Source of the DNA: Eubacteriales bacterium
GTDB lineage: Bacteria; Bacillota; Clostridia; Oscillospirales; CAG-272
DNA length: 64,000 bases
Direction of reading: 5' to 3'
Assembly (NCBI GenBank): GCA_045588145.1
Contig: JAZNDS010000034.1
Coordinates: 4,840-68,839, forward strand
In this document: piece after piece, positions 3,285 through 58,412 of the stretch
Numbering within the stretch: the first letter of the stretch is position 1
Layout: each line of letters starts with the position of its first letter
Translations under genes and position numbers: made by a program
The notes under the pieces: generated by a model
The model's input: only the letters and a program-made list of their open reading frames with translations
Databases searched by the model: none
Told to the model about the DNA's origin: nothing

Positions 3285-5267
3285 TTATTTTTCGTTTTCC
3301 GAAAGCTCTCGGATGCGGTCGCGCAGATACGCCGCCCGCTCAAATTCAAGCCGCCGCGCGGCATCCCGCATCTCGCCCTTTAAGCGCTCGATCGTCTTTT
3401 CCTTTTCCTTCTTCGAAAGCTTCTTTTTGGGCGTATCGGGGCGGCTCGTGTCCTCGTCTCCTGCCTTGCCAAGCGAGATGATGTCGCGGATATCCTTCAC
3501 CACGCTCTTTGGCGTGATGCCGTTCTTCTCGTTGTAGGCGCTTTGCACGGTGCGGCGGCGGTTGGTCTCGTCGATCGCTCGCTTCATTGAGCCCGTCACC
3601 GTATCGGCGTACATCACAACGCGGCCGTTTTGATTACGGGCGGCACGCCCGATCGTTTGAATAAGCGAGGTTTCAGAGCGCAAAAAGCCCTCCTTATCGG
3701 CGTCAAGGATCGCGACGAGCGACACCTCGGGAATATCCAGCCCTTCCCGAAGCAGGTTGATGCCGATGAGAACGTCAAACTTTCCAAGGCGCAGATCGCG
3801 CACGATCTCCATTCGCTCCATGGTCTCGACCTTATGGTGGATATACTTCACCCGAATGCCGACGCTGCCGAGATAATCGGTAAGATCCTCGGCCATTTTG
3901 GTGGTAAGCGTCGTGACGAGCGCGCGCTCACCTCGCGCCGTCACTTGCCGCAGCTCCTCAATGAGATCGTCGACCTGTCCCTCCACGGGATGCAGGCGGA
4001 TGCGGGGATCCAGAAGCCCCGTCGGGCGGATCAGCTGCTCGGCCACGCCGTCGCTATGCTCGTTTTCATAGGGGCCGGGCGTCGCGCTGACAAAGACGGT
4101 CTGTCCCATCTTCGCTTCAAACTCCTCAAACCGAAGCGGGCGGTTGTCGTAGGCCGAGGGCAGGCGGAAGCCGTAATCGATCAGATTTTTCTTGCGGGCC
4201 ACGTCCCCCCCGCTCATGCCCCGTACCTGGGGCAGCGTTACGTGCGATTCATCGACGAAAAGCAAATAATCCTTCGGGAAATAATCCAGAAGCGTATAGG
4301 GGGTCGATCCAACGGGCCGCCCCGCTAAAATGCGTGAATAGTTCTCCACACCCGAGCAGAAGCCCACCTCGCGCAGCATCTCCAGGTCGTAAAGCGTCCG
4401 CTGCTCGATGCGCTCGGCCTCCAGCAGCTGATGGTTTGCCTTGAAGTATTCCACCCGCTCACGCATCTCAGCCTCGATCTCACCGAGCGCCCGCTCCCGA
4501 TGCTCGCTTGACACCGCGTAGTGCGTGGCGGGAAAGATCGCGACGTAGCTCAAGGGGCGAAGCACCTCGCCCGTCACCGTATGGATCTCGCTGATGCGCT
4601 CGATCTCGTCGCCAAAGAATTCGATCCGCAGAGCCGACTCGCGGAAGGAGGCGGGAATGATCTCCACAAGGTCCCCATGCACGCGGAATTTGCCACGCGT
4701 AAGGTTCAGGTCGTTGCGGGTATAGCCGATCCCGACCAGCCGGCGGAGAAGCTCGTCCCGCTCCATCGTCTGCCCACGGCGGATCGAAACCAAAAGCCCC
4801 TCGTATTCCGCGGGATCCCCCAGCGAATAGATGCAGGAGACCGAGGCCACGATAATAACGTCGCGCCGCTCGTAGAGCGAGGAGGTGGCGCTGTGGCGAA
4901 GCTGGTCGATCTCGTCGTTCACCATCGCGTCCTTTTCAATATACATATCGCGCCCGGGGATATAGGCCTCGGGCTGGTAATAGTCGTAATAGGAAACAAA
5001 AAACTCCACCGCGTTGTCGGGGAAGAATTCCCGCAGCTCCGAGCAGACCTGGGCGGCGAGGGTCTTGTTCGGCTCAAGGATCAGGGTGGGGCGGTTGCAG
5101 CGCGCGATCACGTTGGCCATCGTAAAGGTCTTGCCCGATCCCGTTACGCCAAGTAAGGTTTGCATTTTTTTGCCGTTTTTAATTCCGCTCACCAGTTTTT
5201 CGATCGCTTCGGGCTGGTCCCCCGTCGGCGAAAAGCTGCTTTTTAAGGAAAAAACACCCTCTTGCAT
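3285..5267 (-). CDS. uvrB: Excinuclease ABC subunit B. Start taken at MQEGVFSL; the track ORF extends further 5'.
   Basis: Contains the UvrB helicase motif [16 protein letters not shown] and the C-terminal UvrB/UvrC interaction region. The RBS AAAGGAGAGG precedes the ATG at 5267. Confidence 0.95.
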
Positions 5268-32761: not shown

Positions 32762-32837
32762 TGGAGCTGCTAATCAGATTCGAACTGATGACCTCATCCT
32801 TACCAAGGATGTGCTCTACCAACTGAGCCATAGCAGC
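32762..32837 (-). tRNA. tRNA-Thr (anticodon GGT).
   Basis: Minus strand reads GCTGCTATGGCTCAGTTGGTAGAGCACATCCTTGGTAAGGATGAGGTCATCAGTTCGAATCTGATTAGCAGCTCCA. It has a 7-bp acceptor stem, a T-arm GGTCATCAGTTCGAATCTGATT and a U-GGT-A anticodon loop; CCA is encoded. Confidence 0.85.
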
Positions 32838-47223: not shown

Positions 47224-48054
47224 ATGTCTTACAAAAGAATTCTAACCGTGCAGGATATCTCCTGCGTTGGCCAATGCTCACTGACCGTGGCCCTGCCGAT
47301 CCTTTCGGCGGCGGGGGTCGAGACCTCGATCCTGCCTTCGGCCGTGCTTTCCACGCACACCGCGGGCTTTTCGGGCTATACCTTCCGTGATCTTTCGGCG
47401 GATATGCCCGCGATCCTTGCCCACTGGGTCAAGGAGGGGATCGCCTTTTCGGCGGTGTATACGGGGTATCTCGGCAGCCGTGAGCAGTGCGACAGCGTGC
47501 TTTCGATCGTTGACGGTACGCTGAAGGACGACGGGCTTTTCATCGTGGATCCTGCGATGGCCGATAACGGTCGCCTGTATCCCGGCTTTGACGGGGCGTA
47601 TGTGGAGGCGATGAAGAAGCTTTGCGCCCGCGCCGATTATCTTTTGCCGAATATCACCGAGGCCTGCTTTCTGACAGGGCTCCCCTACCGCGAAAGCTAT
47701 GACGAAGACTATATCGGGGAGTTGATCGGGGCCCTTTTGGCCCTTGGCAGCCGAAACGTCATCCTGACAGGGGTCTCCTATCGGGAAGGAAGGACGGGGG
47801 TCGTCGTTAAGGAAGGGGACAGCTGCCGCTATTACGAGCATAAAAAGCTCCCGAACAGCTGCCACGGCACCGGCGATATCTACGCCTCGGCCTTCGTTGG
47901 GGCGATGATGAAGGAAAAGGGCGCCTACGAAAGCGCGCGCATCGCCGCCGATTATACCGTTTCCTGCATCGAAAAAACGGCCGAATGCCCCGACCACTGG
48001 TACGGCGCGGCCTTTGAGCCGATGCTGCCGAGGCTGATCGAGCTTCTGAAATAA
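47224..48054 (+). CDS. pdxK: Pyridoxamine/pyridoxal kinase (ribokinase superfamily).
   Basis: Reads ILTVQDISCVGQCSLTVALPIL with the GTGD anion hole near the C-terminus. Confidence 0.8.
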   Translation: MSYKRILTVQDISCVGQCSLTVALPILSAAGVETSILPSAVLSTHTAGFSGYTFRDLSADMPAILAHWVKEGIAFSAVYTGYLGSREQCDSVLSIVDGTLKDDGLFIVDPAMADNGRLYPGFDGAYVEAMKKLCARADYLLPNITEACFLTGLPYRESYDEDYIGELIGALLALGSRNVILTGVSYREGRTGVVVKEGDSCRYYEHKKLPNSCHGTGDIYASAFVGAMMKEKGAYESARIAADYTVSCIEKTAECPDHWYGAAFEPMLPRLIELLK

Positions 48055-48126
48055 AGCGGTAAAAAAGAAAAAGGATAGCAAGAGGTATCTTCCATAAAGC
48101 AGGTTTTACCTTCCGAAAAATCAAAA

Positions 48127-48158
48127 GGAGTACGGACGTTTCGTTCGTACTCCTTTTC
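48127..48158. terminator. pdxK terminator.
   Basis: GGAGTACGGACG-tttc-GTTCGTACTCC-TTTTC. Confidence 0.6.
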
Positions 48159-48226
48159 ACACGCCTTGCCTGCAAGGTATAGTGTGTTACACCTTTTAGG
48201 CGTATTGTCGGGTGGTGAGCATATCA

Positions 48227-48435
48227 GTGAAATGTTTTGCCAAGCAAAACGTGAAATAATGTGCTATTGCACATTGTGAAATATCTCACTTCGTTCGATG
48301 TGAAATGAAATTTGCCCACGTTCGCACAGCGAACATTTCACATTTGCGAAGCAAATATTTCACCGCGAAGCGACATCCCTTGCCCGAATGGGCAAATTTC
48401 GTTGGCGCACCTGCTTTATCGCAGGTGCGCCAACG
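48227..48435. repeat. Array of GTGAAAT (x4) then ATTTCAC (x2) 7-mers interleaved with small GC-closed hairpins. It ends in a 15-bp GC-rich hairpin at 48400-48435.
   Basis: GTGAAAT copies at 48227, 48251, 48276 and 48300. Palindromes GTTTTGCcaaGCAAAAC and AATGTGCtattGCACATT lie between them. ATTTCAC copies at 48335 and 48357 flank ATTTGCgaaGCAAAT. These are followed by TTGCCCgaatGGGCAA and CGTTGGCGCACCTGC-tttatc-GCAGGTGCGCCAACG. Confidence 0.6.
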
Positions 48436-48471
48436 CAGCCGTCTCTCTGTTCTTTTTTATGGGTCTTTTTC

Positions 48472-49914
48472 TTATCTTTTTTTCCAGGTGGAGCGGGAAA
48501 AAAGGATCAGCATCGGGAAGATCTCCAGACGCCCGACGAGCATCACGAAGGAAAGCCAAAGCTTGGATAGGGGCGCGTAGCCCGAAAAATTCCCCGCGGG
48601 GCCGATGACCCCAAGCCCCGGGCCTACGTTGTTAAGGCAGGTAAGCGAGGCCGAAAAATGGGTCTCGAAGCCACCGAAGCCGTCCAAGGATAAAAGGACC
48701 GTAGAGGAAGAAAGGATCAAAAGGTAGAGCGCGAGATAGCTGACGGTCGAGCGTACGGTCTCCTCGGGTAAGACCTCTCCGTCCAGCCTTGTCAGATTGA
48801 CCGAGCGGGGGCGCACCGCCTGCCGTACCTCCCGGATCGCGTTCTTGAAAAGGATGATCACACGGGAGACCTTCAAGCCCCCCGCCGTAGACCCCGCCGA
48901 GGCGCCGATCGCGGTAAGGACCAGCAAAAGGACCTTGGAAAGGGTGGGCCAGGCGTCGTAATCCAGCGTCGTGAAGCCCGTGGTCGAGGAAACGCTCGTT
49001 ACCTGGAAGAAGGCGCCACGCACACAGTCCGAAAAGCTTGCGGAAACCGAAAGCGTATTGGCGGTGATAAGAACCGTCGAAGCCGCGATGATCAGAAGAT
49101 ACACGCGAAGCTCCTCGCTGCGGAAGAATTCGCGGAAGCGCCCGATCAGCACGAAGAAATAGAGATTGAAATTGATGCCGAAGAGCAGCATAAAGATACC
49201 GATCACCCATTCGGCCGCGGGATTACCGTAGCCGCCGATCGAAGCGTTCAGAACCGAAAAGCCTCCGGTTCCGGCCGTAGCAAAGGTGCTGACGAGCGCG
49301 TCGTAAAAGGGTAACCCGCAAAGAAGCAACGCAATGATCTCTATCACGGTAAGCGCAATGTAAATGCCGTAAAGGATCAGGGCGGTCTGCCGTGCCTTCG
49401 GCACAAGCTTGCCCGTTTGCGGCCCCGGGACCTCGGCCCGAAGCAGGACCATCGAGCGGCTGTTGTCGTTCGGGAAAAGGGCCAGCATCAGCACAAGGAC
49501 CCCCATCCCGCCGACCCAGTGGGTGAAGGAGCGCCAGAAGAGGATCCCCTTCGGCAGCCCTTCGATCTCGGCAAGAATGGTAGAGCCCGTGGTGGTAAAG
49601 CCCGAAACCGTTTCAAACAGCGCGTCGATATACGAGGGAATCGCCCCCGAAAGAACGAAGGGGAGCGCCCCGAAAAGCGACAGAAGGATCCAGCCGCCCG
49701 CCACCATAACGAAGCCGTCCTTCGCGTAGATGCGGCGATCCTTCGGCCTTAAGAGCAAAAGAAGGACCCCGACAAGCAGAAGGATGCCCATCGTATAGAG
49801 GAAGGGCAGGGGGGATTCGTGATACACGACCGATACCAGCATGGGCAGGGTAAGCAAAGCGCCCTCCAACAGCAGCAAAAGGCCCAAGAGGTATCCAAGC
49901 ATTCGATAATTCAT
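48472..49914 (-). CDS. TrkH/KtrB-family K+ uptake membrane subunit.
   Basis: Four repeats of M1-P-M2 with GFTTTG/GF(S)TTG selectivity-filter-like motifs; the start overlaps the trkA stop (TAATG). Confidence 0.85.
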   Translation of the reverse strand: MNYRMLGYLLGLLLLLEGALLTLPMLVSVVYHESPLPFLYTMGILLLVGVLLLLLRPKDRRIYAKDGFVMVAGGWILLSLFGALPFVLSGAIPSYIDALFETVSGFTTTGSTILAEIEGLPKGILFWRSFTHWVGGMGVLVLMLALFPNDNSRSMVLLRAEVPGPQTGKLVPKARQTALILYGIYIALTVIEIIALLLCGLPFYDALVSTFATAGTGGFSVLNASIGGYGNPAAEWVIGIFMLLFGINFNLYFFVLIGRFREFFRSEELRVYLLIIAASTVLITANTLSVSASFSDCVRGAFFQVTSVSSTTGFTTLDYDAWPTLSKVLLLVLTAIGASAGSTAGGLKVSRVIILFKNAIREVRQAVRPRSVNLTRLDGEVLPEETVRSTVSYLALYLLILSSSTVLLSLDGFGGFETHFSASLTCLNNVGPGLGVIGPAGNFSGYAPLSKLWLSFVMLVGRLEIFPMLILFSRSTWKKR

Positions 49915-57446: not shown

Positions 57447-58127
57447 TTATATTTTCTTTTCCAATATACTTTTCAAATAATCCTTCTTAAACCTTCTTTT
57501 ACTGCCAAAGAATTCTTTTTCCCATTTAGACGGCGTATTTTCTTCAAATTTTTTCGCAACAAGCTCCAGGGTGCAAATCAAATCGGCGGCTTGGAAAAGG
57601 ATATAATCTTTAGGCTGCACCTTTCGGAACTCTACGTTTGAAAACAGGGCATTGAACACAGAGGTCAAGATCTTGGTTAATTCAATTTGCCCGTTATCGT
57701 AATAAATAACAATCTCCTCGAATTGCTCCCAATACGTCATGTTTCTTCGTAGGCTGTCCGCGATCGCTTTCGAAACAGGGGAGGTCAAGTGGATAACGTC
57801 CGGGCTTTCGGATTTTTTGATCAAAACAAAATCGTAGTGCAGATCCAAGGTTCTTACAAAATGAAACAGGGCATTGAACAATCGCTTTCTATCTTCCATG
57901 CGATCGTTTGAATAAATCGATTCCCGGCGGATCAGAGGTCCTGCGTGGATGGCGTGATCTTCATAGCCTATATTCTTTACGTGCTCATAAAAACGAGAAA
58001 TTTGATGACCTATATTCACCCTTTGATCATGCAAAACCATCGTTACAAGATAATAGGGCGAATGTGCCGCATATTCTCCGAAATCTCCGGATTCATCAAT
58101 AAAAATGCTCAATCTTCTTGTAGACAT
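57447..58127 (-). CDS. DUF3800-family protein in a low-GC islet.
   Basis: Reads MSTRRLSIFIDESGDFGEY, a DUF3800 N-terminal acidic motif. Local GC is far below that of the surrounding genome. Confidence 0.7.
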   Translation of the reverse strand: MSTRRLSIFIDESGDFGEYAAHSPYYLVTMVLHDQRVNIGHQISRFYEHVKNIGYEDHAIHAGPLIRRESIYSNDRMEDRKRLFNALFHFVRTLDLHYDFVLIKKSESPDVIHLTSPVSKAIADSLRRNMTYWEQFEEIVIYYDNGQIELTKILTSVFNALFSNVEFRKVQPKDYILFQAADLICTLELVAKKFEENTPSKWEKEFFGSKRRFKKDYLKSILEKKI

Positions 58128-58412
58128 CCGTGCTCTCCGTCGGTAAAAAAAGTGGCGGGGAAATTCCCCGCCTTTCGGTGGACCAGGGTCTTTCGACCAG
58201 CCCTACTAGTAAACACTAGCTTTTTGTGTTTTTATTATACCATGGTTTTTGCGGAATGTCAATAGCTTTCTGTAGACTTCATTTCTATTATATGCTGCTT
58301 TGAAAAAACAATGCATCTATAAGCACTTTCAAATTTTCTGAATCCGCTTTCAATTTATATAAAGATTATAGCAAATGTTTCAGTATAAATGGGGCTTTTT
58401 TCGCTTCGGTCA

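Follow-up and report, generated by a model that had tools for sequence, protein, structure and literature searches.

The 417-bp spacer between a pdxK-like open reading frame (ORF), which ends at 48054 on the plus strand, and a convergent TrkH-like ORF, which ends at 48472 on the minus strand with TrkA behind it, is a copy of the Gut-1 element (RF01706). The spacer lies in a 64,000-nucleotide (nt) stretch of the genome of an Eubacteriales bacterium (GenBank assembly GCA_045588145.1, contig JAZNDS010000034.1, positions 4,840 to 68,839), hereafter the window, to which all coordinates refer. Gut-1 was described by Weinberg et al. in 2010 from 43 human-gut metagenome sequences as a probable non-coding RNA, with nothing said of its function or hosts (PMC2864571). 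It has been in Rfam since 2010 without a function, a cultivated host or a genomic context; in the searchable literature Gut-1 is named in no other paper, and its linker heptamer, GTGAAAT, in no relevant one. The window copy and its relatives give Gut-1 named hosts (Oscillospiraceae, Acutalibacteraceae, Ruminococcaceae, and further Clostridia of the gut), a complete anatomy that is roughly double the model in size, and three associations, i.e. dispersal within genomes, docking immediately behind transfer RNA (tRNA) genes, and adjacency to PF05635 genes. This wider architecture, the dispersal, and the tRNA and PF05635 associations appear to be undescribed in the searchable literature.

RF01706 matches the minus strand of the spacer from 48404 to 48330 with 51.7 bits, above the gathering score of 50 (E = 2.7e-7 for the whole window). 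A second match, on the plus strand from 48225 to 48311, scores 41.5 bits and is below threshold. We refer to the regions of the second and of the first match as arm 1 and arm 2, respectively, their order on the plus strand. The window copy displays the features by which Gut-1 is recognized, i.e. three short hairpins with GUGAAAU linkers and covarying stems. One stem differs by a compensatory G-C to A-T change from that of L136, the close match of the window copy (L-numbers are labels of the relative loci that we retrieved), and the 292 hairpin units in relatives are ~95% Watson-Crick paired, with varied sequences. When relatives were scanned with RF01706, arm 2 scored 54-79.5 bits on the equivalent strand in 18 of 18, and three of these 18 also had an above-threshold match to arm 1, on the opposite strand. 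The window copy is among the weakest Gut-1 matches because one of its linkers has decayed, reading GGGAUGU on the minus strand in the alignment. A preliminary description of the spacer, made from the sequence alone, had missed the Gut-1 identity; its proposal of a discrete element, made of hairpins with a constant linker and not explained by the flanking genes, is borne out.

Read on the plus strand, arm 1 (48227..48306), which is laid out in the same way in relatives, consists of four GTGAAAT linkers (48227, 48251, 48276, and 48300) and three hairpins of 17-18 nt. Two of these are perfect palindromes (GTTTTGC-caa-GCAAAAC at 48234-48250 and AATGTGC-tatt-GCACATT at 48258-48275) and the third, a 17-nt unit at 48283-48299, is an imperfect one that recurs in several relatives. 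Next come the sequence GAAATTTGCCCA (48307..48318), designated GAAAT-X1, and a central hairpin, GTTCGC-aca-GCGAAC (48320..48334), with a hairpin at the equivalent position in relatives. Arm 2 (48335..48404), the Gut-1 match on the minus strand, reads on the plus strand as ATTTCAC linkers alternating with short hairpins: ATTTCAC (48335), the perfect palindrome ATTTGC-gaa-GCAAAT (48342-48356), ATTTCAC (48357), the hairpin CGC-gaa-GCG (48364-48372), the decayed linker ACATCCC (48373-48379), which is ATTTCAC in L136, the perfect palindrome TTGCCC-gaat-GGGCAA (48380-48395), and finally ATTTCGTTG (48396-48404). Two of its ATTTCAC-type linkers are thus exact and two decayed. The element also includes a terminal 15-bp GC hairpin (48400-48414 paired with 48421-48435, on both strands), located 36 nt beyond the stop codon of trkH; this hairpin shows compensatory changes relative to L136, and an equivalent one is common to the copies within one genome.

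The motifs and palindromes named in the preliminary description are all present where it placed them; the third unit of arm 1, the central hairpin, the CGC-gaa-GCG hairpin, and the decayed linker were absent from it. The heptamer count exceeds what shuffled sequence gives. Six of the window's 12 GTGAAAT sites fall inside 137 bp, whereas 20,000 dinucleotide-preserving shuffles of 48190-48460 contained a mean of 0.087 GTGAAAT and a maximum of 3, and any heptamer at all reached six copies in only 5 of 5,000 shuffles of the same interval. The 221-nt core (48220-48440) has folding z-scores of −8.4 as minus-strand RNA, −8.3 as plus-strand RNA, and −9.6 as DNA, with none of 200 shuffles equally stable in any of these cases. 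Alignment to L136 places the conserved unit at about 48089-48435, a wider unit than the 48190-48460 originally delimited.

A scan of a species-genome collection that required only three direct GTGAAAT, and is therefore unbiased with respect to the second arm, returned at least 120 loci, mostly from metagenome-assembled genomes (MAGs) of gut and rumen Clostridia. A metagenome collection scanned with the hallmark pattern gave at least 120 further loci and a viral collection 11, an earlier viral scan with GTGAWAT having produced mostly tandem-repeat noise. BLAST against phage and plasmid collections gave two short partial matches in unannotated faecal phage contigs and zero plasmid matches. Element statistics refer to 149 non-identical elements (or to 131, 122, or 118 elements) among the matches listed in these scans, which are incomplete samples. 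We use orientation A for the plus strand of the window and orientation B for the strand of the Rfam model, i.e. the minus strand of the window.

Among the matches listed in the species-genome scan, ~40 loci (38 complete elements) carry, inside ~150 bp, three or four GTGAAAT and then two to four ATTTCAC, and the arm order is always plus then minus, never reversed. In orientation A, the full module reads (GTGAAAT + 17-18-nt hairpin) three times, a fourth GTGAAAT, GAAAT-X1, and the central hairpin; its second half reads (ATTTCAC + 9-13-nt hairpin) two or three times, ATTTCAC, an X2-loop-X' hairpin, ATTTCGTTG, and the GC-rich hairpin, in most cases with an A run in front and a T run behind. Four plus four linkers could be parsed in 79 of the 149 elements, and contig ends cut most of the others. 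The inverted half can also be seen in the flanks of the alignment of Weinberg et al., where BAAZ01000095 has GUGAUAU three times and then AUAUCAC four times, outside their Gut-1 model (PMC2864571). A promoter at the centre serving divergent transcripts was considered, and none was evident on inspection; the centre varies with X. We also considered a likeness of GTGAAAT to ParB/Noc half-sites (GTGAAAC and GGGAAAT), and the full palindromic site is absent.

The two halves of the module are joined by a covarying long-range helix of 11-12 bp that the preliminary description did not contain. In the window, GAAATTTGCCCA (48307-48318) is complementary to TGGGCAAATTTC (48389-48400), designated X'-ATTTC, and the two form the 5' and 3' strands, respectively, of a helix enclosing arm 2. 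A perfect GAAAT-X1/X'-ATTTC complement of at least 10 nt is found in 112 of 131 elements, with X taking forms as different as AAATCC, CCACCC, CCGTCC, TTGCCC, and TCGCC. Across 44 distinct triplets, 97.7% of the positions of this helix are paired and five pairs have both partners changed; its covariation score is 0.443 against 0.162 in shuffles, none of 500 scoring as high. The local X2/X' hairpin is equally well supported (95.1% paired, covariation 0.789 against 0.282). Since 48389-48400 pairs either with 48307-48318 or, through its GGGCAA, locally with 48380-48385, the long-range and local X helices are, as predicted from pairing, mutually exclusive. The X1/X2/X' triplet could be a conformational switch, or simply a conserved triple repeat. 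X and X' also flank arm 2 in the manner of inversion sites; the idea of an invertible segment was rejected when no all-direct Clostridial-type array of seven to eight units turned up among the matches listed in a search able to detect one.

Gut-1 elements are dispersed. Two copies lie 715 bp apart at L177 and 2.7 kb apart at L148, those of each pair being ~98% identical. The block shared at these loci, ~215 bp, starts with the terminal hairpin's A run and ends one T beyond the last ATTTCAC; the sequences on either side are unrelated, and ordinary genes lie between the copies. In genome JAZTZP01, which has at least four near-identical arms, contigs break inside the arrays, the repeats being numerous enough to break assembly. 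At an identity of at least 90%, the 149 elements form 83 clusters, eight of which have members at different sites; one cluster sits behind tRNA-Cys, tRNA-Trp, tRNA-Val, and tRNA-Gln. The window copy itself is ~90% identical to L136 over 48089-48435, whereas the flanking genes cannot be aligned. The option of a miniature repeat, raised in the preliminary description, thus holds at family level, with near-identical copies at different loci and within one genome. In the four nearest TrkH homologues (78-82% identity), trkA-trkH is kept, with 68-147 bp after trkH, and no GTGAAAT array lies behind trkH; an ordinary terminator after trkH is evident in L243 and L244. No exact gene match for the window PdxK or TrkH is on record. 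An orthologous empty site was sought, and its exact junction was not obtained, synteny downstream of trkH being unconserved among the nearest TrkH relatives.

Some further observations concern these copies. Four contigs of JAZTZP01 (L187, L189, L190, and L200) begin or end in near-identical arrays, with a palindrome of the TATAGTTTATC...GATAAACTATA type before each. At L177, the terminal hairpins of the two copies (~4270-4300 and ~4985-5015) share their stem, and their loops are reverse complements (TTAC and GTAA), which suggests a DNA-level event, e.g. template switching or hairpin inversion. At seven metagenome loci, including L308, a fragment of an IS256-family transposase, in the same orientation, is found 86-374 nt past the centre of the element; these loci may be repeat samples of one locus, or an insertion hotspot.

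The module has a fixed relationship to the gene upstream of it. Of 32 elements read in orientation B, 30 have a co-oriented feature upstream. A co-oriented tRNA gene lies directly upstream in 49 of the 122 elements for which sufficient upstream sequence exists, with 27 anticodons represented, and an anti-oriented one in none of the 122; tRNA-linked members occur in 32 of 63 clusters. The upstream gene is thus a tRNA gene in 40-50% of cases. The A run of the terminal hairpin starts 0-2 nt past the tRNA end in 45 of the 49. Of 40 tRNA-linked elements, 38 have a T run behind the hairpin, as do 41 of 56 others. Stable-RNA genes other than tRNA genes can also be found upstream: at L236, an RNase P RNA (RF00010, 129 bits, cut by the contig end; 1-201, plus strand) immediately precedes a Gut-1 element and a PF05635 gene. 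The only tRNA gene detected in the window (32765-32837, minus strand) has terminator-like hairpins behind it and no hairpin array, so that at least one tRNA gene of this genome is without a Gut-1 module.

At the window locus, the signals at either end of the element differ from those of most relatives. No T run adjoins the terminal hairpin on the plus or the minus strand, the plus-strand T run being 17 nt away, and a terminator scan reports only the weak TTGCCC hairpin. At the other end, beyond arm 1, there is a 16-bp hairpin, AAAAGGAGTACGGACG-ttt-CGTTCGTACTCCTTTT (48123..48157, an inverted repeat on both strands), that is kept in L136. On the minus strand, this hairpin (48157..48123) is followed by TTTTGATTTTT (to 48109), and on the plus strand by TTTT, as expected of a terminator; 48123-48157 is therefore a putative two-way terminator that would end both pdxK, on the plus strand, and a trkH-plus-element transcript, on the minus strand. 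When elements are read in the Rfam direction, only 14 of 118 have a terminator behind arm 1, and scans for promoters and terminators give ambiguous signals on either strand. Between this hairpin and arm 1 lies a promoter-like site on the plus strand, TTCACA-16-TATAGT (48156..48183; 10 of 12 matches), which points into arm 1, is identical in L136, and has a small hairpin, CCTTGC-ct-GCAAGG (48164-48177), between its hexamers; neither this site nor any consistent promoter was found upstream of arm 1 in other relatives. On the far side of the two-way hairpin, a lineage-specific left extension (48089..48122, plus strand) is ~90% identical to L136, and its motifs are common only to L136 among the retrieved loci. 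It contains CCATAAAGCAGGT (48092-48104), an inverted repeat that complements the loop and inner arm (48409-48424) of the terminal GC hairpin. The block shared with L136 hence includes the hairpin, the promoter-like site, and this 11-nt complementarity between the element's ends, which is seen only in these two copies.

Only one protein family recurs in the neighbourhood of the 149 elements. It is PF05635 (TIGR02436), the four-helix-bundle or 23S rRNA intervening-sequence protein, whose gene lies downstream on the same strand in 34 of 131 elements. The gene (~115 amino acids) starts ~120 nt after the element centre, just past the last ATTTCAC (e.g. L126, L156, L171, L183, and L236), and conservation between loci ends at its stop codon. 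The family includes Avd of the diversity-generating retroelements (DGRs). At L236 and L183, only 16-17 nt, which hold a ribosome-binding site, separate the element from the PF05635 ATG. PF05635 genes are also found flanked by plain tandem heptamers without hairpins, at L139 (880-1500, minus strand), L216 (1-562), and L217 (4900-5600, minus strand), where the heptamer types are GAGAAAT/TAGAAAT; GTGAAAT/GTGAAAA then ATTTCAC/ATCTCAC; and TTTCTCT then GTGAAGA, again as inverted pairs. When the ORFs within 3.5 kb of the 149 elements were clustered in search of an associated enzyme, a serine recombinase (five loci) and the IS256-like fragments (seven loci) were only local.

Family membership and architecture are established, and so, for the family as a whole, is dispersal. 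With middling confidence, we read the spacer as a Gut-1 module, i.e. one copy of a dispersed and often multi-copy intergenic unit of gut and rumen Clostridia, that forms part of the minus-strand 3' untranslated region (UTR) of trkA-trkH. Such a module sits behind a gene, very often a tRNA gene, whose transcription runs towards the terminal hairpin, and in about a quarter of cases a PF05635 gene starts just past its other end, the window module being a solo copy without one. In single-stranded nucleic acid the palindromes would fold into hairpins, the heptamers would act as sequence-specific recognition sites rather than as mutual pairing partners, and the X/X'/X' triplet would permit either of two mutually exclusive helices. 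In the window, the element is probably transcribed on the minus strand as the trkA-trkH 3' UTR and ends at the shared terminator (48157-48123). The predicted unit consists of trkH, 36 nt, the terminal hairpin without a U tract, both arrays, and the hairpin 48157..48123 followed by UUUUGAUUUUU; we favour this 3' UTR reading because the window's terminal hairpin lacks a U tract. Candidate roles are those of a structural 3'-flank or insulator module, or of a binding platform for PF05635 proteins. For the window, the consequence is modest, i.e. the annotation of the trkH-pdxK spacer should read Gut-1-type repeat element instead of unexplained candidate small RNA (sRNA).

Several observations weigh against this reading. 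The terminal hairpin is followed by a T run in ~80% of relatives and would stop transcription in the proposed direction before it reached the arrays. Most PF05635 genes have a promoter of their own, TTGAAA-17-TATAAT, with the −35 box abutting the last ATTTCAC, and many copies therefore lie in a gap without obvious transcription. A profile built from 18 element-linked PF05635 proteins detected no PF05635 gene in the window at E values up to 10. A single Gut-1 copy is visible in the 64-kb window, several near-identical copies per genome being seen in relatives (two each at L148 and L177 and at least four in JAZTZP01). No target-site duplication or common target was seen at the junctions of the four copies at L148 and L177, and the ORFs within 3.5 kb of the 149 elements revealed no association with a transposase, recombinase or reverse transcriptase.

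The stems raise a further objection, because they do not carry the usual signature of RNA-only structures. On the B strand, Watson-Crick, G-U, and A-C pairs number 544, 10, and 10 in arm 2; 1275, 26, and 15 in arm 1; and 1240, 15, and 8 in the terminal hairpin. The element as a whole thus has 51 G-U and 33 A-C in ~3,140 pairs, whereas one-way terminator-like hairpins from the same loci, scored by the same symmetric rule, have 61 G-U and 18 A-C in 906 (827 being Watson-Crick). These wobble pairs assign no strand, the bias towards G-U on the Rfam strand being not significant. As the stems are near-perfect palindromes without strand bias, function as RNA and function as single-stranded DNA are indistinguishable from them. 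On the GTGAAAT-sense strand, the loops are C-TTC-G (72), C-TGC-G (35), and C-TTGC-G (15), against one C-GAA-G, and the ATTTCAC sense therefore has GNA/GNNA loops closed by C-G. Tandem G.A/A.G mismatches in arm-1 hairpins are likewise always on the ATTTCAC-sense strand (26 against 0). Hairpins of DNA and of RNA alike, those of DNA especially, are stable with such C-GNA-G loops and tandem G.A pairs. Because the arms are inverted, these stabilizing features fall on opposite strands in the two arms, which a single transcript does not explain.

Two of the alternatives to a 3' UTR module are, like it, matters of RNA. In one, the spacer would encode a free-standing plus-strand sRNA that starts near 48190 from the TTCACA-16-TATAGT site, covers both arms, ends at the terminal hairpin, and acts in trans, e.g. 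by titrating an RNA-binding protein through GUGAAAU. The sRNA option put forward in the preliminary description stays alive because of the promoter-like site preserved in L136; moreover, most relatives end with an A-run/hairpin/T-run terminator inside the repeated block, transcription units normally have their terminator at the end and not at the start, and Gut-1 was placed among the non-coding RNAs by Weinberg et al. However, the window's terminal hairpin has no plus-strand T run, the nearest being 17 nt off, G-U pairs are not enriched, and a consistent arm-1 promoter is absent in other relatives. Copies within one genome share nothing upstream of the first GTGAAAT, and therefore no promoter travels with the element. 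We consider an sRNA unlikely. The other RNA model, that of the preliminary description, is a ladder in which GUGAAAU and AUUUCAC would form 7-bp rungs, with the hairpins branching at four-way junctions. Its linkers are exact complements in equal number, four plus four, the GUGAUAU examples of Weinberg et al. have AUAUCAC in the other half, and the plain inverted heptamer arrays near some PF05635 genes (L216 and L217) could form a long stem. Pairing of this kind does appear in part, in that the minimum-free-energy folds of both strands use some linker-linker pairs, but it receives zero comparative support. When the ordered linkers of the 149 elements were parsed, none of ~35 single-linker variants was compensated in the other arm, nor were any of the 17 variants at the bias-free r3/l3 pair. 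The variants include ATATCAC at one position (r2) in 16 elements, with the partner unchanged, as well as ATTTCAT, ATTTTAC, ATTTAAC, and the window's ACATCCC. Moreover, the covarying GAAAT-X/X'-ATTTC helix crosses the rungs, so that the two could not coexist, and there are sub-families with non-complementary linkers (ATTTCAC and ATGATGN in L125). The ladder is thus decidedly improbable. Because linker variants are uncompensated and the arms of some sub-families are not complementary, the heptamers look like conserved sequence signals rather than pairing partners.

The remaining alternatives place the function in DNA. An element of the miniature inverted-repeat transposable element (MITE), repetitive extragenic palindrome (REP) or REP doublet (REPIN) type, whose single-stranded hairpins would be recognized by a transposase or HUH-type enzyme, encoded elsewhere and inserting new copies behind genes, would account for the discrete boundaries, the near-identical copies, the presence or absence of the array between relatives, and the assembly breaks. 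Stems that are perfect palindromes without G-U bias, and C-GNA-G/C-GNNA-G loops with tandem G.A on the ATTTCAC-sense strand, also agree with it. On the other hand, the L148 and L177 junctions show neither the target-site duplication nor a conserved target; MITEs combine such a duplication with terminal inverted repeats, and the Gut-1 arms are inverted in architecture only. No transposase, REP-associated tyrosine transposase (RAYT) or integrase recurs within 3.5 kb of the 149 elements, no pair of empty and filled sites with exact junctions was obtained, and the preference for tRNA 3' ends in a fixed orientation would demand a targeting mechanism. We regard a mobile element of this type as improbable. 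Alternatively, GTGAAAT could be the unit of an operator array in duplex DNA, bound by PF05635 or another protein that regulates the adjacent promoter, with solo copies as extra sites or remnants. The −35 box TTGAAA directly adjoins the last ATTTCAC in PF05635-linked copies, the element, with a terminator on one side and a promoter on the other, may be untranscribed there, and hairpin-free arrays of GTGAAAT type also flank PF05635 genes (L139 and L216). Yet palindromic variable spacers, compensatory changes, and constrained loops would be left unexplained, and linker spacings of 18-20 bp in one arm and 24-25 bp in the other would put binding out of helical phase. In addition, 74% of elements, the window's included, have no PF05635 gene nearby, and sequence-specific DNA binding is not known to have been demonstrated for this family. 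An operator array is, in our view, very unlikely.

A bolder reading, which we think rather doubtful, would make Gut-1 no free-standing sRNA but one arm of a mirrored four-plus-four module that spreads in the genomes of gut Clostridia, lodges 0-2 nt past the 3' end of stable-RNA genes (tRNA and RNase P RNA), and is the cognate partner of PF05635 proteins recognizing single-stranded GTGAAAT-linked hairpins, solo copies such as the window's being non-autonomous. If true, this would define a new class of selfish module on stable-RNA loci and the first PF05635 nucleic-acid ligand outside DGRs. Should the PF05635 link prove functional, it would also open to experiment a very widespread family of which only the DGR protein Avd has been studied.

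The design of these hairpin arrays is wider than Gut-1 and wider than the Clostridia. Sister arrays with other linkers include one that combines an ATTTCAC arm with an ATGATGN arm (L125, 3440-3920), with further arrays at L124 (5680-6050) and L121 (4680-4960), and another sister family pairs a GTGAAAT arm with a ATATCATCA arm. An Akkermansia array with ATATAAC linkers (L123, 5900-6200) lies upstream of a PF05635 gene. Elsewhere in the window, a DUF3800-XI RNA (RF02975, 70.6 bits; 58157-58204, minus strand) is found directly 5' of a DUF3800-type gene (57447-58127, minus strand; MSTRRLSIFIDESGDFG...), which is a known association.

How does this element compare with known systems? Arm 2 of the window, with its three short hairpins joined by GUGAAAU, is the likeness to Gut-1 as filed in RF01706, and the relatives come, as did the original sequences, from gut Clostridia and gut metagenomes. 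The Rfam model, on the other hand, is 77 nt long, occupies one strand, is filed as a free-standing sRNA, and comes from human gut metagenomes only. Here the motif is half of a ~215-bp mirrored module that also has a second array, on the other strand, a terminal hairpin, and a covarying long-range helix. Named MAGs from the guts of humans, ruminants, and other animals contain this module, and it is tied to tRNA 3' ends and PF05635 genes. Intrinsic two-way terminators are also GC-rich hairpins between convergent genes, and 48123-48157 fits this description in both directions. For termination, however, one hairpin is enough, whereas the element has nine, joined by constant linkers and mirrored in polarity, in addition to its covarying long-range helix.

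The intervening sequence of Coxiella burnetii 23S rRNA, which is known to hold a PF05635 ORF, is described as a selfish element (PMC4990558). It resembles the Gut-1 module in that a PF05635 gene travels with inverted repeats by or in a stable-RNA gene. Yet the location of 23S intervening sequences is within helix 45, RNase III excises them, and their inverted repeats flank the ORF, whereas Gut-1 arrays precede the ORF and follow a tRNA or RNase P RNA gene, and most copies, including the window's, have no ORF. Nor is the window copy a 23S insertion: it lies between pdxK and trkH, and its relatives lie behind tRNA, RNase P RNA or protein genes.

The element works most like the REP, bacterial interspersed mosaic element (BIME), and REPIN sequences of Enterobacteria and Pseudomonas. 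These are likewise multi-copy extragenic palindromic units with near-identical copies within a genome (for Gut-1, in relatives), a conserved flanking motif, alternating or inverted clusters, and locations at gene 3' ends or in convergent gaps. REP units, however, are imperfect palindromes of ~35 bp with a 5' GTAG, are served by RAYT transposases, and belong to Proteobacteria. Gut-1 has near-perfect palindromes of 9-18 nt, a 7-nt linker, a fixed four-plus-four layout, and a fixed orientation to the upstream gene; the ~35-bp palindrome and GTAG are not part of it, and no recurrent RAYT gene was seen, the search for one covering 3.5 kb around the 149 elements only. The boxA-boxB-boxC (BOX) elements of Streptococcus pneumoniae are, like Gut-1, modular structured non-coding intergenic repeats of Firmicutes with a variable number of short units. 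They have no known sequence or unit similarity to Gut-1, and are not known to have a constant heptamer linker or a tRNA or PF05635 link. Taken as a family, the element behaves like REP/BIME or BOX in being structured, extragenic, multi-copy, and placed at gene 3' ends, yet it has a fixed four-plus-four mirror, a marked preference for stable-RNA genes, and a recurrent PF05635 partner.

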